This document shows, in pieces, positions 3 to 17,904 of a DNA stretch of 64,000 nucleotides (positions within the stretch are counted from its first letter, which is position 1; each line of letters starts with the position of its first letter). The notes beneath the pieces were generated by a model. The model saw nothing but the letters and a program-made list of their open reading frames with translations, was not told where the DNA came from and did not search any database. The DNA comes from Clostridia bacterium (lineage in GTDB: Bacteria; Bacillota; Clostridia; Oscillospirales; CAG-272), in contig JAGASP010000068.1 in assembly GCA_017621695.1 (NCBI GenBank), forward strand, positions 3,858 through 67,857. Reading direction: 5' to 3'. The position numbers and the translations under genes are program-made.

Positions 3-242
3 CCTGCCGAGCATATCATCGGCGAGCATTACCGCTTGGGATCTACCTGTGCTATCTTGTCGAGGAGCTTTTGCAATACTGCTTTGATGGATGATCCGGA
101 CGAGGTTTGCACTGTTTTCCAAAAGGGAATTCGTGAAATACGTGATTTTGAAGAAGAATGTCAATCTTATACGAACTGGCTTTGGAACAACCACTATGAG
201 ATGCAGAAAATTGTTACGACAATTTCGGAGAGTATATCGTGA
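3..242 (+). CDS. 3' end of a gene truncated by the window edge (unknown product)
   Basis: Frame 3 is open from the window edge to TGA at 240-242 (...EHIIGEHYRLGSTCAILSR...TISESIS*). The stop overlaps the GTG start of the next gene (GTGA). No motif recognised. Confidence 0.4.
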   Translation, partial: PAEHIIGEHYRLGSTCAILSRSFCNTALMDDPDEVCTVFQKGIREIRDFEEECQSYTNWLWNNHYEMQKIVTTISESIS

Positions 243-2733: not shown

Positions 2734-3855
2734 TTGAAAAAGGTTCTTTTAGTTGCTACCGTACAAAGTCATATTTGTCAATTTCATCGCCTGCTTGCTG
2801 ATCTTCTCCATGAACATGGATGGGAGGTTCACGTGGCGGCTCGGGACAATTTGATTGAGAAAAACGGGTTGCAATTGGATTTTGCAGATCAGGTTTTTGA
2901 TGTCCCGTTCTCGCGTTCTCCCAAAAGCAGCGATAATCTGAAGGCGTACCGACTGCTGAAGCGTATTGTTTCGGAGGGTTGCTATGATGTGATCCATTGC
3001 AATACGCCTATGGGAGGAATCATCACGCGCCTCGCCGCCCAAAAAGCGCGGAAGCAGGGAACGCAGGTATTTTATACAGCCCACGGATTCCATTTTTATA
3101 AAGGTGCACCAAAGAAAAACTGGTTGTTCTATTATCCTGTGGAAAAATGGTTTTCACGAAAGACTGATAAATTGATTACCATTGTTGACGAGGATTTTCA
3201 GACTGCTTCGAAAAACTTCCATTGTCCTGTATTCAGGATTCACGGTGTCGGGGTTAACGAAAAACGATATTTTCCCGCGAATGAAGAAGCTAAAGCTGCC
3301 TTGAGAGATGAGATGCATTTTGGCCAAGGGCAGAAGATCATTCTTTGTGTCGGAGAGCTTTTGCCGAATAAGAATCATCAGATGGCTATTCGAGCCATGG
3401 TGGAGATCGTGAAGCACTTTCCAGATGCTATGCTCCTGATTGCAGGTAATGGGCCTGAAAAGGAAAAGCTGATTGATTTGATCGCTGCGCTGGATCTTCA
3501 AAAAAACGTCACGCTGTTGGGATATGTGACTAATTTGCAGGATTATCAGAAAGCGGCCGATCTCTTGGTGGCGTGTAGCATTCGTGAGGGGTTGGGCTTG
3601 AATGTCGTGGAGGCTATGATGTCCGGCAACCCTGTTGTGCTGTCCGAAAACAGAGGCCACCGAGAGCTTATAAACGGCGGTAAAAACGGTTACATGGTTG
3701 CTACCAATGACGACAAGCAGATGGCAGAATGTGTAATAAATATTTTTAAAGAAGCAGAAACAGCACGGATTTTTTTTGATAATGCGATTGCCTTTTCAAA
3801 ACAATATAGCTTTGAAGCAGTCAAACAGGAATTGGAGAAAATATATGAAATTTGA
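2734..3855 (+). CDS. Glycosyltransferase, GT-B fold (family 4/1)
   Basis: 373 aa with a TTG start (MKKVLLVATVQ). C-terminal motif REGLGLNVVEAMMSGNPVV is typical of GT4/GT1 transferases. Confidence 0.85.
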   Translation: MKKVLLVATVQSHICQFHRLLADLLHEHGWEVHVAARDNLIEKNGLQLDFADQVFDVPFSRSPKSSDNLKAYRLLKRIVSEGCYDVIHCNTPMGGIITRLAAQKARKQGTQVFYTAHGFHFYKGAPKKNWLFYYPVEKWFSRKTDKLITIVDEDFQTASKNFHCPVFRIHGVGVNEKRYFPANEEAKAALRDEMHFGQGQKIILCVGELLPNKNHQMAIRAMVEIVKHFPDAMLLIAGNGPEKEKLIDLIAALDLQKNVTLLGYVTNLQDYQKAADLLVACSIREGLGLNVVEAMMSGNPVVLSENRGHRELINGGKNGYMVATNDDKQMAECVINIFKEAETARIFFDNAIAFSKQYSFEAVKQELEKIYEI

Positions 3856-4840
3856 CGTTTCGGGGCAACATGCTTTTGAACCGATGGTATCTATTGTTAT
3901 CCCTGTTTATAACGGTAGTAACTATTTGAAAGAGGCTATTGACAGTGCCCTTTCGCAAACCTATGCAAATTTTGAAATTATTGTGGTGAATGATGGCTCG
4001 AGGGATCAGGGAGCTACTCGCGAGGTTGCTCTATCCTACGGCAAGCGAATCCGCTATTTTGAAAAAGAAAACGGAGGCTCCTCGTCTGCCTTGAATATGG
4101 GTATCGCAGCTATGACCGGAGAGTGGTTCTCTTGGCTTAGTCACGATGATCTGTATACACCTGCGAAATTAGAGGAGCAGGTCAAATATCTGGAGAGGCT
4201 TCAGCTTTCGAATGAAGAATTGCCCAACCAGATTCTTTTCGCAGCCTCCGATCTGATCGATGGTCGTGGCCGAACTATTCGTCGTGCGAAGAAAAAAGAT
4301 TGTGAAACGATAGCGCGGTTTCTATGGGCCATGAAGGGTAACGAGTGTCTCATCGCAGAACCAACAAAATATACTTTTCACGGTTGCTCCTGCCTCGTGC
4401 ACAAAAGCGTGTTTAAGACTGTCGGAGTGTTTAATGAAGATCTGCGGCTTTTAAATGACCTTGACCTTTGGTTTCGTATCTATGCGGCGGACTATAAGAT
4501 TCATTATTTGCCCGAGGCATTGGTTAAGGGACGTATTCATGAAAAGCAGGTGTCCAAGACTATTGGATATTCCTACCATAATCCGGAGCAGGAAATGTTT
4601 TGGAAAAGAAGCATGGACTGGCTGATGCTTCATCACCCTGAAAACCGGCAGCTGTTTTTTCTGTATGGCCGCAATGCCTATTTGAAAACGAGAAATGATG
4701 ATGGCGATCGTGCGTTTGCGTACCTCGCTTCTGTCCAACCGTCCCAAAGGGTTAAACTGTTTTTTTTGAAACGAATATACAAGAGTCGTGCGGCCGCACA
4801 CACGCTCATAAAGAAAGTTTATTTGAAACTAAAAACGTAA
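3845..4840 (+). CDS. Glycosyltransferase family 2 (GT-A fold)
   Basis: The ORF track opens at 3776. ATG 3845 (MKFDVSGQ...) gives the usual GT2 N-terminus VSIVIPVYNGSNYLKEAIDSALSQTYANFEIIVVNDGS. There is an 11-nt overlap with the upstream gene. Confidence 0.85.
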   Translation: MKFDVSGQHAFEPMVSIVIPVYNGSNYLKEAIDSALSQTYANFEIIVVNDGSRDQGATREVALSYGKRIRYFEKENGGSSSALNMGIAAMTGEWFSWLSHDDLYTPAKLEEQVKYLERLQLSNEELPNQILFAASDLIDGRGRTIRRAKKKDCETIARFLWAMKGNECLIAEPTKYTFHGCSCLVHKSVFKTVGVFNEDLRLLNDLDLWFRIYAADYKIHYLPEALVKGRIHEKQVSKTIGYSYHNPEQEMFWKRSMDWLMLHHPENRQLFFLYGRNAYLKTRNDDGDRAFAYLASVQPSQRVKLFFLKRIYKSRAAAHTLIKKVYLKLKT

Positions 4841-4857
4841 AGGATGTATCTTATTTC

Positions 4858-5988
4858 ATGATTCCATATGTTCTGCTGATGTTTGTTCCCCTGTTGTTTT
4901 CCTTCATTTCTTTTTCTGCAGCATTTACGGAATACAACGGTAAATGGTCTGTCAGGATCGGAGCGAAAAAAGAAATCCTCGATCATAGCTGTTTAATCCC
5001 AGTGTTTTTCGCCATGTTTATTGCTTTGCTGGCTTTGAGGGATGAAACTATCGGACGAGATTTAGCAAATTATAAGAGTTATTTTAACTATTATTCGTCT
5101 GTTGACATTAAAGAAATATTTAAGGAAAAGGTTGATATCCTATATTGGCTGTTAAATTGGTTGGTTGGGAGATTCACAGATAATTATCAGGTCTTTTTAG
5201 CCATCGTGGCGTTGATCACGGTATTGCCGATGGCTAAGGTCTATAGCGAAGACCGGCAACATGGCTTTTTAAAGATCGTTTTGTTTATGAATATGACGAC
5301 CTTTATCATGGTGTTCTCTGGCTTGAGACAATCTATTGCAATAGCCATGGGGGTTGTCGCATATGAATTTGTAAAAAGAAAAAAGCCGTTTCTGTTCCTT
5401 CTGTTTGCGGCGATCGCGATGGGCTTTCATCACACAGGGTTTATGATACTTTTGCTTTACCCGCTGTATTATATTACTTTTAAAAAAAGGCATTTATGGT
5501 TTGTTATTCCGGGTGTTTTGATGGTGTTTGTTTTTAACAAGCCTATCTTCACTTGGGCGACTAATCTTTTAAATTCATTTTGGAACGGCAGATATAATGT
5601 AACGATCCGAGATACCGGTGCTTATACTACACTGTTTTTGTTTTTCTTATTTGCTGTTTTTGCCTATGTTTTGCCGGATGAACGGAAAATGGATACGGAG
5701 ACGCACGGGCTTCGAAATATTCTGTTGGCAGCTCTTATTTTACAATGTTTTGTACCGGTACATGCACTGGCAATGCGAATGAACTATTATTTTATTATTT
5801 TTATTCCATTATTGATCCCCAAAATTTTAACGAATGTCAAAGACAGTATGCGGGATATAGCAGGAATTGCTAAAGTTGTTTTGGTGGGATTTTTTGTTTT
5901 GTATTACATAATCGATATTTATATACAATGTCAAACCGGAATTACTGCACTGGACACTTATCCCTATATATTCTATTGGGAAAGTTAA
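4858..5988 (+). CDS. EpsG/Wzy-type polysaccharide repeat-unit polymerase (integral membrane)
   Basis: 376 aa with about 10-11 hydrophobic helices and no soluble domain. The overall pattern resembles EpsG-family polymerases. Very AT-rich coding sequence. Confidence 0.7.
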   Translation: MIPYVLLMFVPLLFSFISFSAAFTEYNGKWSVRIGAKKEILDHSCLIPVFFAMFIALLALRDETIGRDLANYKSYFNYYSSVDIKEIFKEKVDILYWLLNWLVGRFTDNYQVFLAIVALITVLPMAKVYSEDRQHGFLKIVLFMNMTTFIMVFSGLRQSIAIAMGVVAYEFVKRKKPFLFLLFAAIAMGFHHTGFMILLLYPLYYITFKKRHLWFVIPGVLMVFVFNKPIFTWATNLLNSFWNGRYNVTIRDTGAYTTLFLFFLFAVFAYVLPDERKMDTETHGLRNILLAALILQCFVPVHALAMRMNYYFIIFIPLLIPKILTNVKDSMRDIAGIAKVVLVGFFVLYYIIDIYIQCQTGITALDTYPYIFYWES

Positions 5989-6013: not shown

Positions 6014-7198
6014 ATGAGGATTGTGCAAATCAATGCGACCTGTGGCATAGGAAGCACAGGAAATATCTGCATGGATATCAGCAAACTGTTAACGGAACGC
6101 GGCGTGGAAAATTATATCTTGTTTAGCGGCCAAACTAACGGATATGACAAAGGCATTCGCTGTGCTGATAAAAAATATATCCGTTGGCAGGCGGGCAAGG
6201 CAAGACTGCTTGGTAATTACGGTTTTAATTCAAAAAGGGCAACGAAACGGATGATCGCAGAGCTGGAACAAATTAAGCCGGACATTGTCCATCTGCATAA
6301 TATCCACGGCCATGATTGCCATTTGAAAATGCTCTTCGAGTATTTTAAGGAAAAAAGGACGAAACTTTATTGGACGTTTCACGATTGCTGGGCTTTTACA
6401 GCGTACTGTCCGCATTTTACCCTTGTCAAATGCGAAAAATGGCAAAACGGTTGCGAAAAATGCCCTCTCTATCGAAACCACAGCTGGGTATTTGATCGAA
6501 GCCGCGTGTTGTACCAAAAGAAAAAATCTTCGTTCACAGGTCTGGACCTGACCATTATTACACCTTCCCAATGGCTGGCAGAGCTTGTAAAACAATCCTT
6601 TTTGAAGGATTATCCCGTGACTGTAATCAATAACGGTATTGATCTGACAGTGTTTTATCCTATGGAAAGTGATTTCCGAGAAAAATATGAAATCCCACAG
6701 AACAAGACGGTGCTTTTGGGCGTGGCATATGGTTGGGATGTTCGCAAAGGCTTGGATGTGTTCGTTGCGCTTTCCCAAAGGCTGGATCCTACGGAATATC
6801 AGATCGTTTTGGTGGGAACCAATGAAAGCATTGATCAAAAACTGCCACCCAATATCATTTCTATTCACCGCACTTTGAACCGTCAGGAGTTGGCAGGTAT
6901 ATATTCCGCTGCGGATCTGTTTATCAATCCCACTCGAGAGGACAATTTCCCAACGGTCAATATAGAATCGCTTGCTTGCGGTACCCCTGTTTTGACCTTT
7001 CATACGGGCGGAAGCCCCGAAAGCATTGACGCCAAAACGGGAGAGGTTCTCCCTGCGGAGGATATCGCGTATTTGAAAAAACGCATTGAAAGCATTCGAA
7101 AGGAAGGTACATATTCCAAAGACGATTGTGTGCGAAGAGCACAGCAGTTTGATAAAAATGTCAAATATCGAGAGTACATGGATGCTTATGGTATTTAG
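6014..7198 (+). CDS. Glycosyltransferase family 4
   Basis: 394 aa. N-terminus MRIVQINATCGIGSTGNI and C-terminal NPTREDNFPTVNIESLACGTPVL motif match GT4 (WcaC/EpsD-like) enzymes. Confidence 0.85.
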   Translation: MRIVQINATCGIGSTGNICMDISKLLTERGVENYILFSGQTNGYDKGIRCADKKYIRWQAGKARLLGNYGFNSKRATKRMIAELEQIKPDIVHLHNIHGHDCHLKMLFEYFKEKRTKLYWTFHDCWAFTAYCPHFTLVKCEKWQNGCEKCPLYRNHSWVFDRSRVLYQKKKSSFTGLDLTIITPSQWLAELVKQSFLKDYPVTVINNGIDLTVFYPMESDFREKYEIPQNKTVLLGVAYGWDVRKGLDVFVALSQRLDPTEYQIVLVGTNESIDQKLPPNIISIHRTLNRQELAGIYSAADLFINPTREDNFPTVNIESLACGTPVLTFHTGGSPESIDAKTGEVLPAEDIAYLKKRIESIRKEGTYSKDDCVRRAQQFDKNVKYREYMDAYGI

Positions 7199-7282
7199 CT
7201 TATTTGTCAAGCCAAAGCTTTCCCCGACCTCGGTCGGTTTACATAGATCGCATCCCCTTAAAAATATGCAAAGGAGAAAAAC

Positions 7283-10200
7283 ATGAAAAATACGAAATTC
7301 ATCAAAGTTATGGCTCTTGTACTTTCGGTCGTTATGCTTTTGGGTATGATTCCCGTGGGCGCATTTGCCGCAGAAACAGAATTTGTATCTGAAACTCACG
7401 ACGTGTTCTCTTCGACCACTTCGACCATTGCCCCCGGCGTAACCCAGAGTATTAACTACGCCTATTCCAAGGACGGCAAGCAGATGGTTTATTACGTAGC
7501 CACTGCTGATGTCACCCGTGATGATGTTGTGGTTCAGACATCCTACAAAGAGCAGTATGTCAACAGCAATTTCGGCATGGAAAAGCTCACCAACCAGATT
7601 GCTTTCGCTGACAAGCTGTACACTGACCCCACGAGCGATCGCTTTATCAGTGAAAATTATAAGGTCGTTGCAGGTGTCAATGCATCCTTCTACAACATGA
7701 CCACCGGTCAGCCCTCCGGCGTGACTTACCTGGACGGCATTCGCATCGGTGAGTCTGCCTCCTACAACCAAATTTTCGCAGTCAAGAAGGATGGTTCTGT
7801 GTATATTGAGTATACCAAGAATCTGGAGGATGCTGACTACGACGAGATCTGGCAGGCTGTCGCAGGCTCTCAAATGCTGGTTTACGAAGGCCGGGATGTT
7901 ACCAAGAACATCAACGGTTCTTATAACACCGATCGCCACAGCCGTACCTGCGTGGGTGTGACTGCCGACGGTAAGGTCGTTGTCATGTCCTTGGATGGCC
8001 GTCAGGAGCCCTTCTCCTGCGGTGGTACTATGCACGAGCTGGCCCAGATCATGCTGGAGCAGGGTTGTGTGACAGCAATCAACCTGGACGGCGGTGGATC
8101 CACCACCTTTGCTGCTCGTCAGGAGGGTGAAAATGACGTTACCATCGTGAACCGTCCCTCCGATGGTTCCGAGCGTTCTATTTCTGCAGGTCTGATCATC
8201 GCCTCCCTGGCAGCACCCTCCGACAAGTTCGACCGTGCTGTTCTGACCGCTGAGAACACCTACGTGACCCCTGGCTCCACCGTGAAGGTCACCGCAGCCG
8301 GTGTTAGCCCTGCCGGTACCGCTGCTCCCATTCCCGAGGATGTGGATTGGCAACTGGCTGACAGCAAGTATGGTACTGTCGAGAACGGCGTGTTCGTTTC
8401 CAACGGCACTGTCGGTGCAGTTGAGATTCAGATGACCTACGGCGGCGCCGTTGTCGGCTCCACCATTGTCAACGTGGTTATTCCTGATACTCTGAAGTTC
8501 AACAACTCCTCCGTCACCGTCCCTTATGGGAAAACTGTCAAGATCGGTCTGACCGCTACCTTTGGTCTGAACGAGGTTGCTCTGAAAGATTCTGATATCG
8601 CCTTCACTTTGAGCAATACCGCTATCGGTAGCTTTGACGGCCTGTCCTTCACTGCCGGTGCTGAGGGTATCGCGGCTTCTACCTCCGAGGTGACCGCAGC
8701 ATTCACCTTTGCTTCCGAGATCACCGCTACCGCTACCCTGAAGCTGGGTAAGGGTTCTCAGGTCATCTTCGACTTCGAGAACGGCACCACCGGCGGTCTG
8801 GTATTCTCCGAACCTGCAGGCACTCAGTACAACTATGTATGGCCTGAAAGCAACCAGTGGGTTGTTACCGCCGAGGAGGGTAAGGTCCACTCCGGCAACT
8901 ATGCTATGAAGGCTTGGGTCAACTACTCCAACTCCTTGGAGTCCGGTTACCAGAAGACCTCTCTGGTCGGCCCCACAGTTCCCATGATATTCGAGAACGC
9001 TACTCGCGTCGGTATGTGGATCTATGTGCCCGAGGAGGCCGTAGGCGTGTGGGCTCGTTGGACCATTCAGGGTGCTACCGAGAAGGATGCCAACGGTGAT
9101 TACAAGTGGTCCGGCGTGACCGGTCAGGATATGGATGATACTGCCGGCGGTACTGGTGTTATCTCCACCTTCCAGGAGTCCGGCTGGCACTACCTGTCCA
9201 TCGACACCTCTGCATACACCGCTATAAGACTGCACTCCGGCGCGATCATGCAGTTCTACATTTCCGACCGTGACGGCTCCGCCTACGGCTACGACGCTTC
9301 CGATTATTCCAACATCACCGGTAACTTCACCTTCTACATCGACGACATTACCATCGACTACTCCGAGGCTGTGGACGACAGAGACGCTCCTAAGTTCTCC
9401 AGCGTTGTCTATGCCGATGAGTTCACCAATGACGCTCCCGAGCTGAATGGTCAGACCACCAAGTCCAACGTTTTGTCCTTCACCGCTACCGTAGCTGATA
9501 AGGTCGCTGCCAACGCAACCGGCCTGAACCCTGCCTCCGCTAAGGCTTATATCGATGGCGTTGCCGTTGACTTCACCTACAGCGACGGCAAGATCGCTAT
9601 CACCGATGTGAAGCTGGCTGACGGTAAGCACACCGTTAAGTTCACCATCTGCGATAATATGGGCAACTACAGCTCCGTGATCCGTGAGATCATCGTGAAC
9701 GCCGGCTCCGATATCGCAACCGTGAAGATGGTTCCTCACGACGCAACTCTGGACCGTATCCTTCACGGCTCTATCTACTACATCGACCTGGTCGCTACCG
9801 ATATTGACACCGCCAAGAGCGTTGCCTTCTCCATCGACCTGGATTCCCTGAGCACCTGGCAGCTGGATCACATGGATCTGGCCGAGGGCTTCACCGCTAC
9901 CTACAGCATCGACGCTGACGACAACATCGCCACCGTCGTGATCACCCGCACCGGCGCCGTTGTGGCCGAGGGCGAGGCTGTTCTGGCTTCCATCCCCGTT
10001 CGCGTCTGGCAGTTGAAGACCGGCTACACCTATCCCAATGGTACTCAGGCCGGTAAGCCCGCATTCACCTCTAAGCAGTTCCGCGACAAGAAGGAGTTCT
10101 GGAGAATCTCCCTGATTGCTGACGTCGAGTTCGGTCAGCTGACCAACCTCGATGACACCACCACATCCTTCACCAGCAACGGTATCTTCGTGGATACTGA

Positions 10201-11770
10201 GATGTGGGCAGAGGATGCCGACATGATCGCTACCGAGGCTGGACTGGCATACTACAACAACTGGAACGGCGGTCACGTCCACTCCGCACACGCAGTCGAC
10301 GATCTCGACGCTACCTGCGATACCGCCGGCTACACCGGCCGCACCTTCTGCGACGTTTGTAATTCCGTTGTGGATTGGGGTACCACCATCCCCGCAACCG
10401 GACACACTTACAGCCTGGTTGACGGAGAGTTCAAGTGCGTGGATTGCGATGCTGACCTGGGCAACTACACCGGTATGGTGTACGATGACATCGCAGAGGT
10501 GTATCGCTATCTCATGTTTGGTCAGGTCAGCGCCGGCTGGTTCATGGTTAACAACGAGTGGGTCTATATCATACCCGAGACCTTCGCAGCTGCTCAGGGT
10601 AGCGTGACTACCACTGACGGCATTACTTTCGACTTTGTTGACGGTAAGGTCCAGGGTCACGTCTGGGAGGACTGGTACGTTTACAAGAGATGCTGGTACG
10701 GCCCCGACTATTATAAGAATACCTCCAAGAACGTTAAGTACCTTATGGTTGAGCTCGACGGCGAGATTTACTTCTTCAACAGTGCGGGTTGCATGCAGAA
10801 GGGTCTGGTTGTTTCCCACGAGTCCAACAAGTTCGACTTCTTCTGCTACGATTGCGGTACCGACGGTAAGGGTGTTCCTTACACCGGCGTTGCCGAGGAT
10901 ATGTACTTTGAGAATGGTCTCCAGCAGATGGGTCTCCGTCTAGTCAAGGTAGAGGAGAATCACTACTTTATCACCGCCTCTAATCGTTTAGCATCTAACT
11001 GCACGGTTGAGCTTGGGTCCGAACTGACCGGTTTGGTATTTGCAGACGGTAATGTCTACTTCGTCGAAAACGGCGTCGCAGTTGCAAAGGGTCTGGTACA
11101 GGATGCGGAAGGTAACTTCTACTTCATCAACAGCACCAAGAAGGCTGTTGAGAACACCTGGTATGCCTTTAGTGCTTCCGGCACCAACGGTCTGAATGTC
11201 AAGCCTGGCAGATACTACTTCGATGCCAATGGTAAGATGGTCGATCCTATTATTGAGGAAGAACCCGAGATCCCCGTAGTCAAGGAGGGCTTGGTCTTCG
11301 AGGAAAACGGCGACATCCAGTTCTATGAGAACGGTGTGGCAGTTGCCAAGGGTCTGGTACAGGATGCCGAGGGTAACTACTATTTCATCAACAGCACCAA
11401 GAAGGCAGTGAAGAACACCTGGTACGCATTCGCTGTTTCCGGTACCAATGGTCTGGATGTCAAGCCTGGCAGATACTTCTTCGAGGCTGACGGTAAGATG
11501 GTCATTCCCGAACCCGAGGAGCCTGAGACTCCCGTAGTCAAGGAGGGCTTGGTCTTCGAGAAAAACGGCGACATCCGGTTCTATGAGAACGGTGTGGCAG
11601 TTGCCAAGGGTCTGGTACAGGATGCCGAGGGTAACTACTATTTCATCAACAGCACCAAGAAGGCAGTGAAGAACACCTGGTACGCATTCGCTGTTTCTGG
11701 TACCAATGGTCTGGATGTCAAGCCTGGCAGATACTTCTTCGAGGCTGATGGTAAAATGGTTCTTAACTGA
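7283..11770 (+). CDS. Secreted multidomain wall-associated protein with phosphodiester glycosidase (NAGPA / 'uncovering enzyme'-like) domain and C-terminal cell-wall-binding repeats
   Basis: AAGGAG RBS and signal peptide MKNTKFIKVMALVLSVVMLLGMIPVGAFA. The NAGPA (PF09992/COG4632-like) pattern is VAGVNASFYN ... RTCVGVTADGKVVVMSLDGRQ ... AINLDGGGSTTF. A long Ig/CBM-like middle region follows. There is a Cys-rich segment (CDTAGYTGRTFCDVCNS ... KCVDCDA). The C-terminus carries YYF/DGKM-type wall-binding repeats. The gene is clearly GC-richer than its neighbours. Confidence 0.85.
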   Translation: MKNTKFIKVMALVLSVVMLLGMIPVGAFAAETEFVSETHDVFSSTTSTIAPGVTQSINYAYSKDGKQMVYYVATADVTRDDVVVQTSYKEQYVNSNFGMEKLTNQIAFADKLYTDPTSDRFISENYKVVAGVNASFYNMTTGQPSGVTYLDGIRIGESASYNQIFAVKKDGSVYIEYTKNLEDADYDEIWQAVAGSQMLVYEGRDVTKNINGSYNTDRHSRTCVGVTADGKVVVMSLDGRQEPFSCGGTMHELAQIMLEQGCVTAINLDGGGSTTFAARQEGENDVTIVNRPSDGSERSISAGLIIASLAAPSDKFDRAVLTAENTYVTPGSTVKVTAAGVSPAGTAAPIPEDVDWQLADSKYGTVENGVFVSNGTVGAVEIQMTYGGAVVGSTIVNVVIPDTLKFNNSSVTVPYGKTVKIGLTATFGLNEVALKDSDIAFTLSNTAIGSFDGLSFTAGAEGIAASTSEVTAAFTFASEITATATLKLGKGSQVIFDFENGTTGGLVFSEPAGTQYNYVWPESNQWVVTAEEGKVHSGNYAMKAWVNYSNSLESGYQKTSLVGPTVPMIFENATRVGMWIYVPEEAVGVWARWTIQGATEKDANGDYKWSGVTGQDMDDTAGGTGVISTFQESGWHYLSIDTSAYTAIRLHSGAIMQFYISDRDGSAYGYDASDYSNITGNFTFYIDDITIDYSEAVDDRDAPKFSSVVYADEFTNDAPELNGQTTKSNVLSFTATVADKVAANATGLNPASAKAYIDGVAVDFTYSDGKIAITDVKLADGKHTVKFTICDNMGNYSSVIREIIVNAGSDIATVKMVPHDATLDRILHGSIYYIDLVATDIDTAKSVAFSIDLDSLSTWQLDHMDLAEGFTATYSIDADDNIATVVITRTGAVVAEGEAVLASIPVRVWQLKTGYTYPNGTQAGKPAFTSKQFRDKKEFWRISLIADVEFGQLTNLDDTTTSFTSNGIFVDTEMWAEDADMIATEAGLAYYNNWNGGHVHSAHAVDDLDATCDTAGYTGRTFCDVCNSVVDWGTTIPATGHTYSLVDGEFKCVDCDADLGNYTGMVYDDIAEVYRYLMFGQVSAGWFMVNNEWVYIIPETFAAAQGSVTTTDGITFDFVDGKVQGHVWEDWYVYKRCWYGPDYYKNTSKNVKYLMVELDGEIYFFNSAGCMQKGLVVSHESNKFDFFCYDCGTDGKGVPYTGVAEDMYFENGLQQMGLRLVKVEENHYFITASNRLASNCTVELGSELTGLVFADGNVYFVENGVAVAKGLVQDAEGNFYFINSTKKAVENTWYAFSASGTNGLNVKPGRYYFDANGKMVDPIIEEEPEIPVVKEGLVFEENGDIQFYENGVAVAKGLVQDAEGNYYFINSTKKAVKNTWYAFAVSGTNGLDVKPGRYFFEADGKMVIPEPEEPETPVVKEGLVFEKNGDIRFYENGVAVAKGLVQDAEGNYYFINSTKKAVKNTWYAFAVSGTNGLDVKPGRYFFEADGKMVLN
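11020..11767 (+). repeat. Three in-frame tandem repeat units (periods 261 and 258 bp) at the 3' end of the NAGPA-domain gene
   Basis: Units start at about 11020, 11281 and 11539. Each encodes VKEGLVFE.NGD..FYENGVAVAKGLVQDAEGNYYFINSTKKAV.NTWYAF.VSGTNGLDVKPGRYFFEADGKMV. Units 2 and 3 differ at only about 6 positions over about 225 bp. Unit 1 is clearly more diverged. Confidence 0.9.
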
Positions 11771-11933
11771 CCGATGAAGTGATTTCATAATCACTTCTGA
11801 CCGATAGGGCGCAGGGTGCTTCAGCACCTTGTGCCCGAATAAGAAATCTGTTCTGGGGGACTTTCCCATGGAAATAGGCTCAATATTTGGTTTGTTTGTC
11901 ATTGATACATTCGGGTTTTTATAGGAGGGGAGA

Positions 11934-12920
11934 ATGAAAATTGATTTTGTTGTGCTTTGGGTGGATGGTGCTGATTCTGAATGGAGAAAGCAGAAGAGTT
12001 TCTACACCGGAGTTCCATATGTCGAAAATGACATACGCTACCGCGACTGGGAAATTTTTCACTATTGGTTCCGTGCTGTAGAGCAATATGCTCCTTGGGT
12101 CAACAGAGTCTTTTTGATAACCTGTGGTCAAATCCCCCAATGGTTGAACACCCAACATCTTAAGTTGAAGTTGGTTTTTCACAGGGATTATATGCCGGAA
12201 GAATATTTGCCGACATTTAGCTCACATCCCATAGAATTGAATTTGCATAGAATTTCTGACCTTTCAGAACATTTCGTGTATTTTAACGACGATATGTTTC
12301 TGAATGCTCCTGTCCAAGCGGAGGACTTCTTTCGCGACGGGTTGCCCCGTCTGAGCGCTGTGCAATCCTTATTCGTCCCGATGGACCTTGGCAACTCGTT
12401 TCCTCATATCATGTGCAACAGCACTGCTTTTTTAAATACTCATTTCAAAAAAAAGGAAGTTATCAAAAAAAATCCAGAGAAGTGGTTTACTCTAAAATAT
12501 GGGAAAGGTCTTTTGAAGAATATATACTTTTCCATTGGACAGCACGGCTTTTCTGTTTTGCAGAACTATCATATGCCGTCTCCAATGTTGAAATCTACCT
12601 TTGAAAAGGTTTGGGAAATGGAGCCCGGAATTCTCCATGAAACATCTCTTCGCAAACTGAGAAGCGAAAAGGACGTGAACCAGTATATCATGAATTATTA
12701 CGATATAGGAACTGGAGGCTTTGTCCCTCGAGATCCACGGGAAGGAATGCTCTATGAGGCGGGACATAATAGCGAAGCGTTGTATCGTGATTTGCTTGAA
12801 GAAAAACATAAAATGATTTGTATCAACGATACAACATGTCATGATTTTGAGGGAGAAAAGCGAAAACTGATATCTGTTTTTGAAAAGAAATTCCCTCAAA
12901 AATGTTCTTTTGAAAAATAA
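11934..12920 (+). CDS. Stealth-family protein (capsular hexose-1-phosphoryl transferase type)
   Basis: 328 aa with a GGAGG RBS. MKIDFVVLWVDGADSEWRKQK is CR1-like. RAVEQYAPWVNRVFLITCGQIPQWLN ... LPTFSSHPIELNLHRISDLSEHFVYFNDDMFL is CR2-like, as in SacB/XcbA and GNPTAB. Confidence 0.8.
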   Translation: MKIDFVVLWVDGADSEWRKQKSFYTGVPYVENDIRYRDWEIFHYWFRAVEQYAPWVNRVFLITCGQIPQWLNTQHLKLKLVFHRDYMPEEYLPTFSSHPIELNLHRISDLSEHFVYFNDDMFLNAPVQAEDFFRDGLPRLSAVQSLFVPMDLGNSFPHIMCNSTAFLNTHFKKKEVIKKNPEKWFTLKYGKGLLKNIYFSIGQHGFSVLQNYHMPSPMLKSTFEKVWEMEPGILHETSLRKLRSEKDVNQYIMNYYDIGTGGFVPRDPREGMLYEAGHNSEALYRDLLEEKHKMICINDTTCHDFEGEKRKLISVFEKKFPQKCSFEK

Positions 12921-12984: not shown

Positions 12985-14112
12985 ATGAATATTGTATTCG
13001 CATCTAATTATTACAATCATCATCAGTCCTCTATATCGCAGGAACTGAACAGACTAACAAACGGTGAGTTTTCCTTCATTACCACTATGTCGGTGCCGGC
13101 ACAGAGGCGGGCATTGGGTTATACTGAGATGACCGAATCCTTTGTTTATCATTGCGAAAATCAAGAAGAGACTTTCACGAAGGCCGTACAGTTGGTGGAT
13201 GACGCAGATGTCGTGATAGTGGGAGGCACGTTGGAGCAATTACTGAAAAACCGAAAAAAAGCAGGGAAATTGATTTTTCGATGTTCCGAGCGACTTCTGA
13301 AGAACGGCTTCGAACCGCTGAAGTATCCGTGGCGCTTCTATAAATGGCATAAGAATATGCCATCCAAGGCAAACGTCTATATGCTCTGTGCCAGCGCCTA
13401 TACCGCGTCGGATTATGCGGCCTTCGGTATGTATCGAAAAAAAACCTACAAGTGGGGTTATTTCCCCGAGACCAAGTACTATGAGAATTCCAAGGGACTC
13501 ATTGATCAAAAGGATACTACCCAAATCCTGTGGTGTGGCCGGTTTCTGGATTGGAAGCATCCCGATGATGTGTTGACGGTAGCGAAACGCTTGAAGGACC
13601 AAAATTACAACTTTCATATCAATATCATTGGCGCCGGTGAAATGGAAAATACGCTAAAACAATTTGTTCTAGAGAACGACTTGTCAGAACAGGTATCGCT
13701 TTTAGGTTCCATGTCCCCCGAAAAGGTTCGCGAGCACATGGAGAAGTCGGGAATCTTCTTGTTCACCTCGGACAGAAAAGAGGGATGGGGGGCTGTTTTG
13801 AATGAGGCCATGAATAGCGCTTGCGCCGTTATTGCCAGTACGGAAGCGGGTTCCACGCCATACCTGATCCGCCAAGGAGAGAACGGTCTGACTTATTCGT
13901 CATGCAAAGTTGATGAATTGCTTGAAAATGTAAAATACTTATTGAAGCATCCTGAGGAGCAAGCTCGGCTGGGGCAGGCTGCCTATGAAACGATCACGAC
14001 AGAGTGGAATGCGGACATTGCGGCTGAAAGGCTGGTTGCCTTGGCTACTCGAATATTGAATGGCGAAAAATATCCGGATCTTTATTCGGAAGGTCCTTGT
14101 AGCAGAGCATGA
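12985..14112 (+). CDS. Glycosyltransferase, GT-B fold (family 4/1)
   Basis: 375 aa with an AAGGAGG RBS. C-terminal motif is SDRKEGWGAVLNEAMNSACAVIAS. Confidence 0.8.
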   Translation: MNIVFASNYYNHHQSSISQELNRLTNGEFSFITTMSVPAQRRALGYTEMTESFVYHCENQEETFTKAVQLVDDADVVIVGGTLEQLLKNRKKAGKLIFRCSERLLKNGFEPLKYPWRFYKWHKNMPSKANVYMLCASAYTASDYAAFGMYRKKTYKWGYFPETKYYENSKGLIDQKDTTQILWCGRFLDWKHPDDVLTVAKRLKDQNYNFHINIIGAGEMENTLKQFVLENDLSEQVSLLGSMSPEKVREHMEKSGIFLFTSDRKEGWGAVLNEAMNSACAVIASTEAGSTPYLIRQGENGLTYSSCKVDELLENVKYLLKHPEEQARLGQAAYETITTEWNADIAAERLVALATRILNGEKYPDLYSEGPCSRA

Positions 14113-14179
14113 TTCTAAGAATAATTTTGTTGATCCTTCTGTGTGGGCGTGAGCATTGAATCATTCGGAGGATATGGTT

Positions 14180-15235
14180 ATGAAGAAAATAAAAATTGTA
14201 ACTTATTGTTCATGGACAAGTATTGGATCAGTTCTTCAATCTTTGGGACTAAAAAAAACATTAGCCGTAATTGGATACCAAAGCTCAATTTGGTTAAATA
14301 GAGAGGATAATGCTTTTGCCAAAACCAGAGTTCATTCGGTCAAGAGCTTTTTTAAACGATCTTTTGAGGTCGTGACCCATCAGCAAAGACAAAAAACTTA
14401 TCAAAAACGCATGGATTTTATATCCCGAAATATTGACCTCGAATATTACTCGACTTACAGTGAGCTTGAGTATATGGCGGCTCAAAATGAGACTGATGTT
14501 ATCCTAGCAGGAAGCGATCAAATATGGCATCCCGATCATTGCAATCCCGTATTTTTTCTCGATTTTGCCTCCAATAAAAAGCGTGTTTCCTATGCTGCCA
14601 GCATGGGGAAGACCGAGATCCATCCCGATAAGCGGGCTTTGTTCGGACAATTGGTCAACAATTTCGATTCTATTTCGGTCAGAGAAGAAGCCTGCGTTTC
14701 GGCCATTCGGGACTTTACCGACAAGGATATATCCGTCCACATTGATCCTACATTCCTTGTAGCTGCTGATGAATGGCGAAAATACGAGGTGGCGTACATG
14801 ATCCGTCGGCCGTATATCTTGCTTTACATGCTTTATTGGAATAAAGCATGTAAAGACAAGATCAAGGCGCTGAAAAGGAAGACGGGATTGCCCGTGTATG
14901 CGATATCGAACGGTTTGTCGGGCGTATATGCGGATACGGTGTTGTATGATGTGGGTGTGGAAGAGTTTCTGTGGCTCGTCGATCACGCCGAATACGTGGT
15001 CACATCATCCTTTCACGGGGTAGCTTTTTCGGCGATCTTTAATAAGAAATTTGCTCCGATCATCAATCCGTCTGTGCCTTCTCGCATCGAAAACCTCCTT
15101 CGCACGCTTTCACTTCCTGTGGTAGATATTGAGGATCTGGCCGCCGCTGATGTTTGGAATTATGCAACCGTAAACGACTTGATCGCGCGCGAAAAGGAAA
15201 GAAGTATGGAATATTTGAAAAAGGTGTTGGAGTAA
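14180..15235 (+). CDS. Polysaccharide pyruvyl transferase family protein
   Basis: The ORF track starts at TTG 14156. GGAGG at 14167-14171 favours ATG 14180 (MKKIKIVTY...). GSDQIWHP and SSFHGVAFS motifs match PF04230 (CsaB/WcaK/EpsO-type) enzymes. Confidence 0.8.
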   Translation: MKKIKIVTYCSWTSIGSVLQSLGLKKTLAVIGYQSSIWLNREDNAFAKTRVHSVKSFFKRSFEVVTHQQRQKTYQKRMDFISRNIDLEYYSTYSELEYMAAQNETDVILAGSDQIWHPDHCNPVFFLDFASNKKRVSYAASMGKTEIHPDKRALFGQLVNNFDSISVREEACVSAIRDFTDKDISVHIDPTFLVAADEWRKYEVAYMIRRPYILLYMLYWNKACKDKIKALKRKTGLPVYAISNGLSGVYADTVLYDVGVEEFLWLVDHAEYVVTSSFHGVAFSAIFNKKFAPIINPSVPSRIENLLRTLSLPVVDIEDLAAADVWNYATVNDLIAREKERSMEYLKKVLE

Positions 15236-16384
15236 ATGAATATATCCTCTTTTGAAAAATGCGCCAATTGTGGGGCTTGCTACAGTATCTGCCCAAAGGC
15301 GGCCATTTCCATCCATCGGAACGCCTTATTCTATGAACCAAAGATAGACACCGAGCTGTGTATTGATTGCGGTGCGTGTGTCAAGGTATGCCCAGTCAAT
15401 CAAGAGATTACCGGGGTGTCGCCCATATCTGCTTGCGCTGGCTGGCACAAGGAAGAAGACGTGGTGCTGAACAGTTCCAGTGGCGGTGCGTTTTACAGCC
15501 TTTCCAAAGAGATATTGGCGCAGGGTGGTATTGTATTCGGTGCGGCGTACGCAGAAGACTGTAAGACGGTAGAGTTTGTTTCTACGGATGACGTCTCTCT
15601 AAAAATGTTGCAGAAAAGTAAATATGTTGAGAGCTTGGTAGGAACAGCATTTCAAAGGGTTAAAGCTGAGCTTGAAAAGGGAAGAATCGTTCTTTTTTGC
15701 GGCACCCCCTGTCAAGTGGCAGGGCTTAAACTCTTTTTGAGAAAAGATTATGAGATGCTTTTGACCTGTGATTTTGCTTGCGGAGGCTTGCCGTCACATA
15801 AGATTTATCAGAATTACTTGCGTGAGCTGGAGTTGAAATATCATGCTTCGGTAAAAAGCATCGATTTTCGTCCGAAAACATATGGGTGGAAACAGCATGC
15901 TATGTGGGCAACCTTTGAAAACGGGAAAGTGTATGACCGCCTTGGTGCAGAGGATCCCTATTTAAAGAGCTTCCTTTTCGGAAAGCTTACGGTTCGTGAT
16001 TATTGTCTGGAGTGTAAGTTTTCAGATCGCCACTTGTCGGATATTACCATAGCCGATTTTTGGATGCATCATAAGCTGTCTGCACTTGAACATGAAGACG
16101 GAATTTCGCTGATTTTGTGCAACACCGAAAAGGGAGAGAAGGCCGTGAACGGTATCAAAGAGCAATTTGTTTTTGAAAATCTGGACGTAGCGAAGGTATC
16201 TTATAATCATAAAGAAACGAAAACGTCCGCGCAGGACAAGGCCAAACGCATCGATTTCTTGAAAATCTATGAGGAAAACGACCTGTCGACTGCCTGTAAA
16301 CGCTTTTTTCATAGCTCACTCAAAAATAAGATCAGAAACCGTATATCCATGATAATCCACCGACGATCAAGGGGTGGGAAATGA
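15236..16384 (+). CDS. FrhB/FpoF-like (coenzyme F420 hydrogenase/dehydrogenase beta-subunit family) flavoprotein with 2x[4Fe-4S] ferredoxin domain
   Basis: 382 aa. Ferredoxin motifs are CANCGACYSICP and CIDCGACVKVCP. These are followed by SSSGGAFYSL ... FCGTPCQVAGL, typical of the FrhB family. The ATG directly follows the upstream TAA. Confidence 0.75.
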   Translation: MNISSFEKCANCGACYSICPKAAISIHRNALFYEPKIDTELCIDCGACVKVCPVNQEITGVSPISACAGWHKEEDVVLNSSSGGAFYSLSKEILAQGGIVFGAAYAEDCKTVEFVSTDDVSLKMLQKSKYVESLVGTAFQRVKAELEKGRIVLFCGTPCQVAGLKLFLRKDYEMLLTCDFACGGLPSHKIYQNYLRELELKYHASVKSIDFRPKTYGWKQHAMWATFENGKVYDRLGAEDPYLKSFLFGKLTVRDYCLECKFSDRHLSDITIADFWMHHKLSALEHEDGISLILCNTEKGEKAVNGIKEQFVFENLDVAKVSYNHKETKTSAQDKAKRIDFLKIYEENDLSTACKRFFHSSLKNKIRNRISMIIHRRSRGGK

Positions 16385-17904
16385 ATCAGAAAAAAGTTGG
16401 TGTTTTAATTTCATATTTGAATCTTGCGATGGGCATGGTGTCCAACGTTTTTCTGGTGCCGTTATTGATCGCCTCCCTTGGTGATGTGGATTATAGCTTG
16501 TATAAGGTCATGCAATCCTTTGCGGGACCGCTGTCTATGTTCCATCTGGGCATTTCTACCATTGTCACGCGGAGCGTTGTGAAATGTGCTACGTGTGAAG
16601 ACTATATGGAGAAAGATAAGAAGAACACACTGGCGCTTTCATTATTGGCATCTGTGGTCATGTCTTTGTTCGTCATGTTGGCGGGAATCGGAATGTACTT
16701 TCTTCTTCCGTCTATGTACGGTAACACTTACACGGAGGCAGGTATCGCTGTCGGACAAAAGCTTTTCTTACTCTTTGTTGCTTCTACGGTGTTTCATATG
16801 CTGACGGATGCTTTCAGTGGATGTATCGTTGGGCATGAACACTTTGTGGTCAGTTCGATGCTGCCTTTGATGAAAACGGCATTGAAGATCATTCTTTATA
16901 TCGTGTTACTCAAGTGTGGTATGGGCGTCGTTTGGGTTGTTGTAGTGGACCTTATTCTGTCCGTTTCTACATTTTCGATTACCGCGTGGTATGCCATGTT
17001 CATTCTGCGTGAAAGACCGAGGCTTTATCGATTCGACAAGCGGCAAATGATGGAGATCCTCTCTTTCGGTGGGGCGATTCTTCTTCAAACCTTTGTGAAT
17101 CAGGTTAACAACAATGTGGATACCATGATCCTTGGTATGTATATTGAAGATAAAATGGTCATTACTATGTATTCATCTGCCTTGGCCATCTACGGGATCT
17201 ATAATTCCTTGATATCTGTTGTGACAAATTTCTTTTTGCCCAGAGCGACCAAATTGGTTGCCCAAAAGGCTTCGGGAAAAGAATTAACCGATTTCGTGAT
17301 TCATCCGGGTCGGTATCAAGCCATTGTCGCTGTTGCGTGTGTCTTTGGATTTGCCTTGTTTGGCCGGAATTTTATTTCGATCTGGATCGGCACGAAGTAC
17401 ATGGACGCTTATTGGATCATACTCATGCTGATGATCCCGGTTACGGTTCCTTTGGTGGAGAATGCCATGATCGCCGTGTTGGATGCAACACTTAAGAGGA
17501 TCTATCGCTCTGCGGTGCTTGTAGTCATGGCTGTTATCAATGTGATCGCTTCAGTGTTGATGGTGCAAGTGCTGGGTTTTTGGGGTGCTGCCATCGGAAC
17601 GGTTGCCTCATTGGTGATAGGGCACGGCCTTCTGATGAATATTTATTACGCAAAAGTATTTCACATTGAAATCGGCAGAATGTTTGGCGCTATCTTTAAA
17701 GGGATCCTATCGGCGGGATTGGCTACGACAATTTTTTGCTTGCCCCTTGCTTTGTTTTTGCCTGATACGTGGTTATGTTTTGCTGTGAAGTGTGCGCTTT
17801 TTTTGATCGTCTATATGATATTTTTGTGGCTTTGGGGATTCAATTCATCCGAAAGATCTATGCTCAAAAGCATTTTGGGCAAGCTGCTTAGGGCTAAGAC
17901 GTGA
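16381..17904 (+). CDS. Wzx-type polysaccharide flippase (MOP superfamily)
   Basis: 507 aa with about 14 hydrophobic helices. ATGA overlap with the upstream gene. It is the last gene of the glycan locus. Confidence 0.8.
   Translation: MNQKKVGVLISYLNLAMGMVSNVFLVPLLIASLGDVDYSLYKVMQSFAGPLSMFHLGISTIVTRSVVKCATCEDYMEKDKKNTLALSLLASVVMSLFVMLAGIGMYFLLPSMYGNTYTEAGIAVGQKLFLLFVASTVFHMLTDAFSGCIVGHEHFVVSSMLPLMKTALKIILYIVLLKCGMGVVWVVVVDLILSVSTFSITAWYAMFILRERPRLYRFDKRQMMEILSFGGAILLQTFVNQVNNNVDTMILGMYIEDKMVITMYSSALAIYGIYNSLISVVTNFFLPRATKLVAQKASGKELTDFVIHPGRYQAIVAVACVFGFALFGRNFISIWIGTKYMDAYWIILMLMIPVTVPLVENAMIAVLDATLKRIYRSAVLVVMAVINVIASVLMVQVLGFWGAAIGTVASLVIGHGLLMNIYYAKVFHIEIGRMFGAIFKGILSAGLATTIFCLPLALFLPDTWLCFAVKCALFLIVYMIFLWLWGFNSSERSMLKSILGKLLRAKT

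Follow-up and report, generated by a model that had tools for sequence, protein, structure and literature searches.

A secreted NAGPA-family protein encoded beside a Stealth gene in a clostridial Wzx/Wzy locus, and the repeated occurrence of its orthologues with LicD or Stealth in related loci

Enzymes of the NAGPA family act on sugars joined to a phosphodiester by the anomeric carbon and cleave the C1-O bond. In vertebrates such an enzyme works with GNPTAB, a Stealth protein, in mannose-6-phosphate tagging, where a sugar-1-phosphate is transferred first and its sugar is taken off afterwards, in a later compartment. Here we describe a locus of a Clostridia bacterium that holds both catalytic families, with the NAGPA fold and its DGGGS loop kept, and for which we propose a similar order of steps. 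In place of the N-glycan that serves as acceptor in vertebrates, a lipid-linked repeat unit of a polysaccharide would be modified here, and the second step would be extracellular. Both by structure and by sequence, the catalytic domain is matched best by BACOVA_00430 of Bacteroides ovatus (DUF2233, PDB 3OHG), a single-domain protein of 285-315 aa without stalk or repeats, unlike the 1495-aa protein of this locus. In work by Das et al. in 2013, BACOVA_00430 reportedly had about 1% of the activity of the human enzyme on GlcNAc-P-Man. We found no natural substrate reported for bacterial NAGPA/DUF2233 proteins in the open literature that we searched.

Four other systems bear on this locus. A functional analogue is pneumococcal Pce (CbpE), which sits on the cell surface through choline-binding repeats and removes phosphodiester-linked groups that LicD has placed on a Wzy-made polymer of the wall. 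Its fold is that of a metallo-beta-lactamase, it hydrolyses a phosphoester and not a glycosidic bond, and its gene does not adjoin licD. Oral streptococci make Wzy-dependent receptor polysaccharides whose hexa- or heptasaccharide repeat units are joined by a Stealth-linked hexose-phosphodiester, and the loci are also Gram-positive Wzx/Wzy loci with a small Stealth gene among ordinary glycosyltransferases; there, however, the phosphodiester is a backbone linker, and the searched part of that text mentions no NAGPA-type glycosidase (PMC1285062). The yeast LicD-domain protein Mnn14 is a proven hexose-1-phosphate transferase whose product needs uncapping: in the Mnn4/Mnn14 system hexose-1-phosphate is transferred from GDP-mannose, and the outer sugar must then come off to expose the phosphate (PMC9705852). 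That system belongs to a eukaryotic Golgi pathway and its uncapping is an added in vitro step outside the yeast pathway, but its chemistry gives a precedent for a like reading of the LicD-NAGPA pairs found in relatives of our locus. Finally, giant proteins of Bacillota that combine prok-TelC with NAGPA are also large and secreted, with Ig-like domains and wall-binding repeats; Burroughs, Nicastro and Aravind read them as conflict effectors, with no LicD or Stealth mentioned in the part of the source consulted (10.1101/2025.01.14.632903). Their helical Lipocone/TelC domain was not found in the 1495-aa protein.

The window, that is, the whole 64-kb stretch of DNA that was analysed, contains the features listed in Table 1.

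Table 1. Features of the glycan locus and of the two proteins under study (positions in the window unless a locus is named).
Feature	Position	Strand	Basis or remark
Priming transferase (Bac_transf)	L005:2551-3252		upstream of the 64-kb window
GT4a, GT2, EpsG (Wzy-type polymerase)	2734..5988	+	Pfam; syntenic with L172, L174
GT4b glycosyltransferase, immediately upstream of the NAGPA gene	6014..7198	+	Pfam
Gene for 1495-aa secreted NAGPA-family protein	7283..11770	+	ORF, translation, Pfam PF09992 and Choline_bind_3
Predicted Sec signal peptide, aa 1-29 (...GAFA/AETE)	7283..7369	+	read from sequence
NAGPA/DUF2233 phosphodiester-glycosidase catalytic domain, ~aa 36-317	7388..8233	+	Pfam, PDB sequence matches, fold
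DGGGS sugar-phosphate recognition loop, D269-S273	8087..8101	+	alignments; motif role from PMC13474241
All-beta stalk, Ig-like and CBM-like sandwich domains, aa 318-1060	8234..10462	+	AlphaFold, Foldseek
Conserved His/Cys-rich motif (H998, H1000, C1012, C1023, C1026, H1041, C1052, C1055)	10274..10450	+	
C-terminal cell-wall-binding (choline-binding-type) repeats	10472..11767	+	Pfam Choline_bind_3, TRF
Two strong RNA hairpins, 11776-11797 and 11807-11836	11776..11836	+	just 3' of the NAGPA stop codon, no U-tail
Stealth-family gene for a putative hexose-1-phosphate transferase, 328 aa	11934..12920	+	Pfam
GT4c glycosyltransferase, downstream of Stealth	12985..14112	+	Pfam
Pyruvyl transferase, FrhB-like Fe-S protein, Wzx flippase	14156..17904	+	Pfam

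The original prediction had placed a NAGPA-type glycosidase and a Stealth gene inside a Wzx/Wzy locus, and Pfam bears this out. A priming phosphoglycosyl transferase, a polymerase, a flippase and glycosyltransferases lie on one strand, and besides EpsG the locus contains three GT4 genes, one GT2 gene, a pyruvyl transferase and a Wzx flippase (Polysacc_synt). The block with the pyruvyl transferase, the FrhB-like protein and the flippase is missing in a 90%-identical sibling locus (L086). In base composition the NAGPA gene (G+C 0.536, GC3 0.667) is close to the genome (0.529), with the Stealth gene (0.399) and the glycosyltransferases (0.37-0.46) well below it. The Stealth gene, the only one in the genome, begins 163 nt after the NAGPA gene, as had been stated. 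The intervening stretch (11765-11935) folds with z = -3.15 against shuffles, and a consensus scan called no terminator in it. All four Stealth regions are present in the 328-aa protein in the correct order: CR1 (aa 1-25, 34.6 bits against a cut-off of 27.2) and CR2 (35-136, 150 against 39.4) exceed their Pfam thresholds, and CR3 (213-250, 23.6 against 24.2) and CR4 (287-328, 25.4 against 27.4) fall just below theirs. These profiles support the family named in the original prediction, and the protein is a putative hexose-1-phosphate transferase.

Next, we examined the catalytic domain of the 1495-aa protein. PF09992 matched aa 127-306 with 129.2 bits (E 2.3e-37), far over the cut-off of 25, and the motifs from which the family had first been recognized, NASFYN, SLDGRQ and NLDGGGSTTF, all lie in the domain. 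The AlphaFold model of aa 1-340 (pLDDT 86.6) matched 3OHG best in the PDB (E 2.9e-20, TM 0.78) and vertebrate NAGPA catalytic domains with TM 0.62-0.71; by sequence, 3OHG and 6PKU were the PDB matches. The DGGGS loop is invariant in 36 relatives (alignments A1 and A3), aligns with the loop of 3OHG and 6PKU, and includes the counterpart of the human catalytic residue D286; D269 is itself invariant. R291 and R298, 22-29 residues past D269, are also invariant in a region where the pairwise alignments end earlier or are gapped; the phosphate-binding arginine of human NAGPA is R316. Human E226 and T227, which contact the acetyl group of GlcNAc, appear not to be conserved: the phmmer alignment, gapped and weak in this region, puts I210 and N211 at their positions, so the sugar removed, if any, need not be GlcNAc. 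As judged from sequence and model, the single catalytic module of the protein is a NAGPA-type glycosidase and a good member of its family.

The remainder of the protein is of a different kind. The N-terminal ~1060 aa are kept in more than 1172 relatives. The AlphaFold model of aa 300-1070 (pLDDT 87.8) consists of strands almost throughout, Foldseek matched the stalk to multi-Ig and CBM chains solely, and neither the model nor Foldseek revealed a second enzyme domain in it; significant Pfam or PDB sequence matches to the stalk were not found. We considered whether this could be a two-enzyme protein of the prok-TelC plus NAGPA type, and rejected this, as the modelled part outside the NAGPA domain is all-beta, with no Pfam or PDB match. 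All eight columns of the His/Cys-rich motif are invariant (alignment A1), and the motif is probably a metal-binding knuckle. At the N-terminus, aa 3-27 form a helix in the AlphaFold model, and signal-peptide cleavage is predicted at GAFA/AETE. At the C-terminus, Choline_bind_3 scored 33 bits against a cut-off of 27, a glucan-binding repeat of NCBIfam matched below its cut-off, and TRF detected a 258-bp tandem repeat (2.7 copies, 89% match, 11069-11760). The ORF and Pfam thus uphold the earlier description of a secreted NAGPA protein with wall-binding repeats, through which it is probably anchored to the surface or wall.

The architecture also bears on the manner of cutting. The DGGGS motif binds sugar-1-phosphate, and characterised NAGPA members take a terminal sugar in a pocket with D286 bound to its O6 (PMC13474241). 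Such a pocket speaks against a chain-cutting role, in which Stealth or LicD would set a sugar-1-phosphate in the backbone and the glycosidase would be the locus's own depolymerase, serving chain-length control, shedding or the clearing of stuck polymer as do the glycanases of many exopolysaccharide loci. We know of no endo-acting member of the NAGPA family. An Ig-like and CBM-like stalk is, however, typical of polysaccharide-active enzymes, the glycosidase is optional in LicD or Stealth loci as self-glycanases are, the linkage statistics given below would apply equally, and the consulted part of the streptococcal work ties Stealth to a backbone linker (PMC1285062). Taken together, we consider chain cutting unlikely.

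To place the glycosidase in its genomic context we used 401 species genomes of the order. Bacterial NAGPA/DUF2233 proteins occur in 322 of them, and in 15 an orthologue of our protein lies within a Wzx/Wzy locus. Eleven of these 15 have LicD in the same locus, confirmed by Pfam; in 8 it directly precedes the orthologue on the same strand, and in 2 more it is within 700 nt. In two others (G038 and the genome studied here) the locus contains Stealth and the genome lacks LicD altogether, which brings the loci with either transferase to 13 of 15; the last two (G324 and G238) have neither in the locus, and G324 lacks both genome-wide. The P0010 locus likewise has an orthologue among Wzx/Wzy genes without LicD or Stealth. 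At the genome level, LicD or Stealth is present in 14/15 genomes compared with 95/386 of the others (Fisher p = 7e-8, relatedness ignored), and LicD is also found in 21 of 24 metagenome or assembly loci. The NAGPA-linked LicD genes are spread over at least 3-4 separate, well-supported LicD clades that are shuffled relative to the NAGPA tree, and the Stealth linkage has at least two origins, each nested among LicD-linked relatives. On these trees the association of LicD or Stealth with NAGPA is recurrent and does not come from a single inheritance.

Synteny links the two arrangements. The window has the order GT4a-GT2-EpsG-GT4b-NAGPA-Stealth-GT4c, L172 and L174 have GT4a-GT2-EpsG-GT4b-LicD-NAGPA, and L089 has GT4b-LicD-NAGPA-Wzy-GT4c, with 34-63% identity between the syntenic genes of the window and those of the three loci. 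In L089, L092, L171, L172, L174 and L194, the GT4 that precedes LicD shares 43-62% identity with GT4b. GT4c has counterparts of 44-50% identity among the GT4 genes of L089, L092 and L093; in LicD-type loci its orthologues are found 3' of NAGPA. As LicD is absent from this frame and Stealth stands 3' of the glycosidase, we read the locus as one in which one phosphodiester-forming transferase, LicD, was replaced by another, Stealth.

Seen from the Stealth side, the picture is different. The two genes are adjacent in only 2 of the 17 Stealth-bearing genomes of the order (15/17 have no NAGPA neighbour), and these two cases are independent in origin on the tree. A NAGPA domain was seen in 0 of the 80 nearest Stealth loci of other species, with ~1.0 expected by chance, and genome-level co-occurrence of Stealth with the orthologue was not significant on its own (p = 0.13). 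NAGPA and Stealth are no conserved pair, and the specific cover/uncover adjacency of the original prediction does not hold. What gains comparative support from the LicD linkage and the synteny is the broader idea of an extracellular glycosidase tied to a maker of phosphodiesters; in contrast to vertebrates, pairing with Stealth is rare in these bacteria and LicD is the usual partner.

Whether a locus has LicD, Stealth or neither, its active-site region is nearly invariant, and a substrate shared by all fits this no less well than a branch peculiar to one locus. That invariance in the face of differing locus chemistry, together with the orthologues in Wzx/Wzy loci that have neither transferase, would be accounted for by an enzyme that cuts the reducing-end sugar-1-phosphate of any Wzy-made polymer, with its LicD or Stealth neighbours incidental. 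Its substrate would be undecaprenyl-diphosphate-glycan on the outward-facing side of the membrane or the LCP-made glycan-1-phosphate-MurNAc bond, and the polymer would be freed from its carrier or the wall. That the gene resembles the genome in composition although the cassettes around it are low in G+C is consistent with this, as is the fusion, described in the part of the source consulted, of NAGPA to prok-TelC, which cleaves undecaprenyl-diphosphate head groups, in giant Bacillota relatives (10.1101/2025.01.14.632903). However, the TelC domain is absent from our protein, the priming transferases and first sugars vary between loci while the pocket does not, and such a role leaves unexplained both the repeated presence of LicD of several clades immediately upstream and the occurrence of Stealth exactly where LicD is missing in the syntenic frame. 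We therefore regard release as distinctly unlikely.

The C-terminal anchors of the family vary (choline-binding repeats, dockerin or LRR), and relatives at a greater distance (31-35% identity) are encoded elsewhere than in glycan loci. Both observations would suit a protein unrelated in function to its neighbours, an adhesin or an effector against foreign or host sugar-phosphate polymers or wall teichoic acids in general, for which a glycan locus that recombines merely offers a conserved site; the conflict-effector reading of NAGPA giants with fast-changing binding domains, in the part of that work consulted, points the same way (10.1101/2025.01.14.632903). Yet the glycan-locus clade holds its place in biosynthetic operons across at least 8 families of the order, the LicD/Stealth enrichment is strong, and no immunity-type partner gene was evident in this or the compared loci. 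Such a role seems quite improbable.

Together, the LicD and Stealth neighbours suggest that the glycosidase processes a sugar-phosphate link made by its own cluster. For the present locus the likeliest reading, at roughly even chances, is that it cuts a glycosyl-phosphate link installed by Stealth on the locus's own polymer. The 1495-aa protein would be exported and would probably stay on the cell surface through the repeats at its C-terminus; Wzx would flip the repeat unit and EpsG polymerise it; and outside the cell the glycosidase would act on the glycosyl-phosphate link, removing a terminal capping sugar and leaving a phosphomonoester on the glycan. We infer the substrate, site of action, anchoring and product in this scheme. 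Removal of a terminal cap is favoured because of the known chemistry of the family and the pocket-type site, with a cut at an in-chain sugar-phosphate as a close alternative. Own-polymer cleavage is supported by the intact family domain, the invariant loop, the lack of another enzyme domain, the LicD/Stealth linkage and the synteny. Against it stand the many Stealth and LicD genes without a NAGPA neighbour (about 149 of 159 for LicD), the loci with neither transferase, the genome-like G+C of the glycosidase gene and the two hairpins that separate it from Stealth. LicD enzymes are, moreover, best known for transfer of phosphocholine or polyol-phosphate, and cleavage of such products is not expected of a NAGPA-type enzyme. 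On the supporting side, the 25 commonest Pfam families of 12 LicD-NAGPA loci include none for CDP-alcohol or choline activation, a tally in which absence means none recurring in at least 3 ORFs.

Extended to gut Clostridia, the scheme becomes a more doubtful form of extracellular cover and uncover, in which a cytoplasmic Stealth enzyme, or a LicD enzyme that transfers sugar-1-phosphate, would cap a phosphate of the repeat unit with a sugar and a dedicated surface NAGPA-type enzyme would uncap it after export. If true, this would mean phosphomonoester-decorated wall glycans, a bacterial counterpart of mannose-6-phosphate tagging, and a natural function for bacterial DUF2233 proteins and a subset of LicD enzymes. 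We found no experimental work on such LicD/Stealth-NAGPA systems in the literature that we searched. A glycosidase repeatedly wired to a phosphodiester-forming transferase in capsule-type loci offers a concrete substrate hypothesis, and since Stealth takes the place of LicD within a syntenic frame, the substrate narrows to a glycosyl-phosphate. Even if the hypothesis fails, the family is a widespread and unstudied group of surface enzymes of the gut microbiota. If it is true, it would point to sugar-1-phosphate transfer by some LicD enzymes, would supply new enzymes for adding or removing glycan phosphodiester caps, and would show how gut Clostridia place or tune negative charge on their surface glycans, a property that bears on phage receptors, immune recognition and the anchoring of surface proteins.

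Translation and Pfam profiles bore out the coordinates, motifs and both family calls of the original prediction, in which the secreted 1495-aa glycosidase and the Stealth transferase were proposed to form a bacterial 'cover/uncover' pair resembling mannose-6-phosphate tagging. Its Wzx/Wzy setting was also found. On contig C40 of a 2.6-Mb genome (127 contigs, 91% complete), the locus genes share one orientation in a block that starts with a priming Bac_transf gene (in L005, the DNA covering the region just upstream of the window), ends with the Wzx flippase, and includes the EpsG polymerase and glycosyltransferases. Its order is HpcH-type aldolase, D-2-hydroxyacid dehydrogenase, a 526-aa protein with no Pfam match, GT4, GT2, EpsG, GT4, the 1495-aa protein, Stealth, GT4, pyruvyl transferase, FrhB-like Fe-S protein and Wzx. 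The first three reading frames overlap; they are 67-75% identical in L086, a 90%-identical sibling locus, and missing from every other related locus compared, and may yield an unusual acidic substituent. In L086 the last GT4 directly precedes a solute-binding protein, the block of pyruvyl transferase, FrhB-like protein and Wzx is not present, and there is an ABC ATPase gene with no counterpart in the window.

Features of the glycan locus, of the 1495-aa glycosidase and of further NAGPA genes
Feature	Location	Remark
Aldolase, dehydrogenase and 526-aa protein	window 239-2711 and L005:3263-4099	locus start
Antisense open frame	window 6230-10819 (-)	1529 aa, opposite the glycosidase gene
Glycosidase gene	window 7283-11770 (+)	1495 aa
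Signal peptide	aa 1-29	Sec-like, by appearance of sequence
NAGPA/DUF2233 domain	aa ~36-317	Pfam 129 bits; PDB sequence matches 3OHG and vertebrate NAGPA
DGGGS loop	D269-S273
Stalk of beta-sandwich domains	aa 318-1060	family-conserved; model pLDDT 87.8
His/Cys-rich motif		C-terminal to the stalk, ahead of the repeats
Cell-wall-binding repeats	C-terminal	258-bp tandem unit among them, 2.7 copies
Two hairpins	window 11776-11836	directly 3' of the glycosidase stop codon
Stealth gene	window 11934-12920 (+)
Pyruvyl transferase, FrhB-like protein, Wzx	window 14156-17904
Second NAGPA-domain gene of the source genome	C95 37366-38790	475 aa, contig end
Third NAGPA-domain gene of the source genome	C96 12022-14274	751 aa
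Tandem giant NAGPA genes (L175)	G030:C32:122000-141999	2572 and 2293 aa

Besides the profile match, the fold upheld the NAGPA assignment: the best structural matches of the catalytic-domain model (pLDDT 86.6) were 3OHG (TM 0.78) and vertebrate NAGPA catalytic domains. The DGGGS loop, R291 and R298 were invariant in an alignment of 36 relatives. In the human NAGPA structure (2026) this loop is the invariant sugar-phosphate recognition element and holds the catalytic Asp (PMC13474241). Since human NAGPA binds the acetyl group of GlcNAc through residues that are apparently not conserved in our sequence alignment, we assign no particular sugar as substrate. Structural neighbours of residues 318-1060 were multi-Ig or CBM-bearing proteins only, and a second enzyme in this conserved middle region, TelC in particular, was ruled out by the all-beta model and zero sequence hits. 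Giant proteins of Bacillota that combine prok-TelC and NAGPA in one core are described in the Lipocone preprint and read there as conflict effectors (10.1101/2025.01.14.632903); unlike these, the window protein has no TelC domain. The family numbers more than 1172 proteins that share the N-terminal ~1060 residues and vary in their C-terminal anchors, with named close homologues in Oscillospiraceae and Ruminococcaceae metagenome bins. Relatives in three compared loci (L183, L186 and L184, the last at G038:C32) carry 590 to ~1850 additional residues N-terminal of the NAGPA domain. These extensions, including the 590-aa one of G038 that was checked for TelC, gave no convincing Pfam or PDB sequence match; the extended relatives might be the TelC-bearing forms of the preprint. 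In the two distant NAGPA-domain proteins of the source genome the domain is central or C-terminal.

The adjacency of NAGPA and Stealth was not enriched. In a 401-species sample of the order, Stealth is rare (17 genomes, and none of 28 congeners) and NAGPA domains are common (322 genomes, ~644 matches), and a NAGPA gene lay in the Stealth locus of only two Stealth genomes, the source genome and G038; five have no NAGPA at all. Among 80 loci, 1.36 Mb altogether, around the nearest Stealth homologues (41-53% identity) of other species, an iterated HMM built from 93 diverse domains found no NAGPA catalytic domain, where about one was expected by chance. Five of these loci matched the HMM through the Ig-like stalk only, and a single-sequence phmmer search of the 80 with the window domain found no match.

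The glycosidase side gave a different picture of the proposed pair: what failed was its specificity for Stealth, and what gained comparative support was a tie of the glycosidase to either LicD or Stealth. Relatives occurred in 24 genomes of the same sample, whose neighbouring genes were scored with purpose-built HMMs, with key calls checked against Pfam. The more remote ones (31-35% identity) are not part of glycan loci; a closer clade, found in 15 genomes that represent at least eight families of the order, has its genes within Wzx/Wzy loci. LicD (PF04991) was in the locus in 11 of the 15, immediately upstream of the glycosidase gene and co-oriented with it in eight (gap of ~20-55 nt, or overlap), within 700 nt in two and 5.6 kb off in one. 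For the source genome and G038, the locus contains Stealth, and LicD is absent from the whole genome. The remaining two have neither transferase in the locus; one genome (G324) lacks both, and the other (G238) has LicD on a different contig. LicD or Stealth was present in 14 of the 15 genomes versus 95 of the 386 others (p = 7e-8, uncorrected for relatedness), LicD overall occurring in 103 of 401 genomes (~159 genes). In a metagenome scan, a single-protein query returned no relative and an alignment query recovered them; LicD was present in 21 of 24 independent loci from metagenomes or assemblies, and the compared locus P0010 was a clear exception to the linkage. In L175, from a genome of the same family, two giant NAGPA genes stand in tandem behind one LicD.

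LicD solely as the maker of a phosphocholine ligand for choline-binding repeats was ruled out here by the lack of LicD in the genome, and the anchors also differ among LicD-linked relatives. The 25 commonest Pfam families of 12 LicD-NAGPA loci (147 ORFs) included none for CDP-alcohol or choline activation, which is compatible with, and no proof of, an ordinary nucleotide-sugar donor.

The trees suggest that the association of LicD with the glycosidase is recurrent. In the catalytic-region tree, the window protein and its L086 sibling fall within a larger clade (support 99 for the nesting) that otherwise consists of LicD-linked proteins and one unlinked protein. The G038 protein falls in a separate clade beside a LicD-linked protein, indicating that Stealth linkage arose at least twice. 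Against a background of 36 unlinked LicD genes, the NAGPA-linked ones were spread over no fewer than three or four distinct, well-supported clades that did not follow the NAGPA tree, and this shuffling ruled out a single inherited LicD-NAGPA gene pair.

The window's gene order GT4a-GT2-EpsG-GT4b-NAGPA-Stealth-GT4c corresponds to GT4a-GT2-EpsG-GT4b-LicD-NAGPA in L172 (G291) and L174 (G167); L089, L092 and L171 share GT4b-LicD-NAGPA, followed in L089 and L092 by Wzy and GT4c. Gene-by-gene identity was 34-63%. The only core differences are that the window has no LicD in its 84-nt GT4b/NAGPA junction and has Stealth 3' of the glycosidase. Together with the lack of LicD in the genome, this suggests that one phosphodiester-forming transferase replaced another, Stealth for LicD, in a homologous assembly line. 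The common ground of the two is a phosphodiester formed on a glycan, by Stealth via sugar-1-phosphate. LicD-domain proteins can do likewise: recombinant Mnn14 of yeast uses GDP-mannose to transfer mannose-1-phosphate and yields a product that then requires uncapping (PMC9705852). Stealth and LicD genes also adjoin, with no NAGPA gene, in three genomes (G181:C89, G089:C56 and G422:C60), whose LicD genes group in a single clade (support 97). This and the presence of LicD in 11 of the 17 Stealth genomes indicate that the two transferases are not simply interchangeable.

Base composition in window 1-20700 is a mosaic. In G+C, flanking transporter genes and the glycosidase gene (0.536) resemble the genome (0.529), and values are much lower for Stealth (0.399), EpsG (0.369) and the glycosyltransferases (0.44-0.46). 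An enzyme acting instead on the sugar-phosphate bond that joins the polymer's reducing end to the lipid carrier or wall, and so releasing the polymer, would better account for this genome-like gene among low-G+C neighbours, for an active site that hardly varies between loci of different chemistry, and for the loci without either transferase, but it leaves the LicD/Stealth pattern unexplained, and we consider it quite improbable. Given the high GC3 (0.67) of the glycosidase gene, we read the antisense frame opposite it, of which L185 has a similar one, as a by-product and not a gene. The two hairpins behind the glycosidase gene are stable (fold z = -3.15) and lack a U-tail; they could stabilise the RNA or act in attenuation between the glycosidase and Stealth genes, where a consensus scan called no terminator.

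A full-text literature search found no paper that connects Stealth or LicD with NAGPA proteins of bacteria. The most economical reading, to which we give about an even chance, is that Stealth would give the polymer made by this locus a glycosyl-phosphate link and that the exported glycosidase would act on this link. NAGPA-family enzymes cleave the C1-O bond, with phosphate as leaving group and the terminal sugar in the pocket (PMC13474241). The same chemistry would sever polymer chains if the Stealth link were a backbone linker, as Stealth can provide in Wzy-made streptococcal receptor polysaccharides (PMC1285062); we regard this as unlikely, and cleavage at a pocket-held terminal sugar favours uncapping. 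For the polymer of this locus, the glycosidase would then remove a cap sugar and leave a phosphomonoester.
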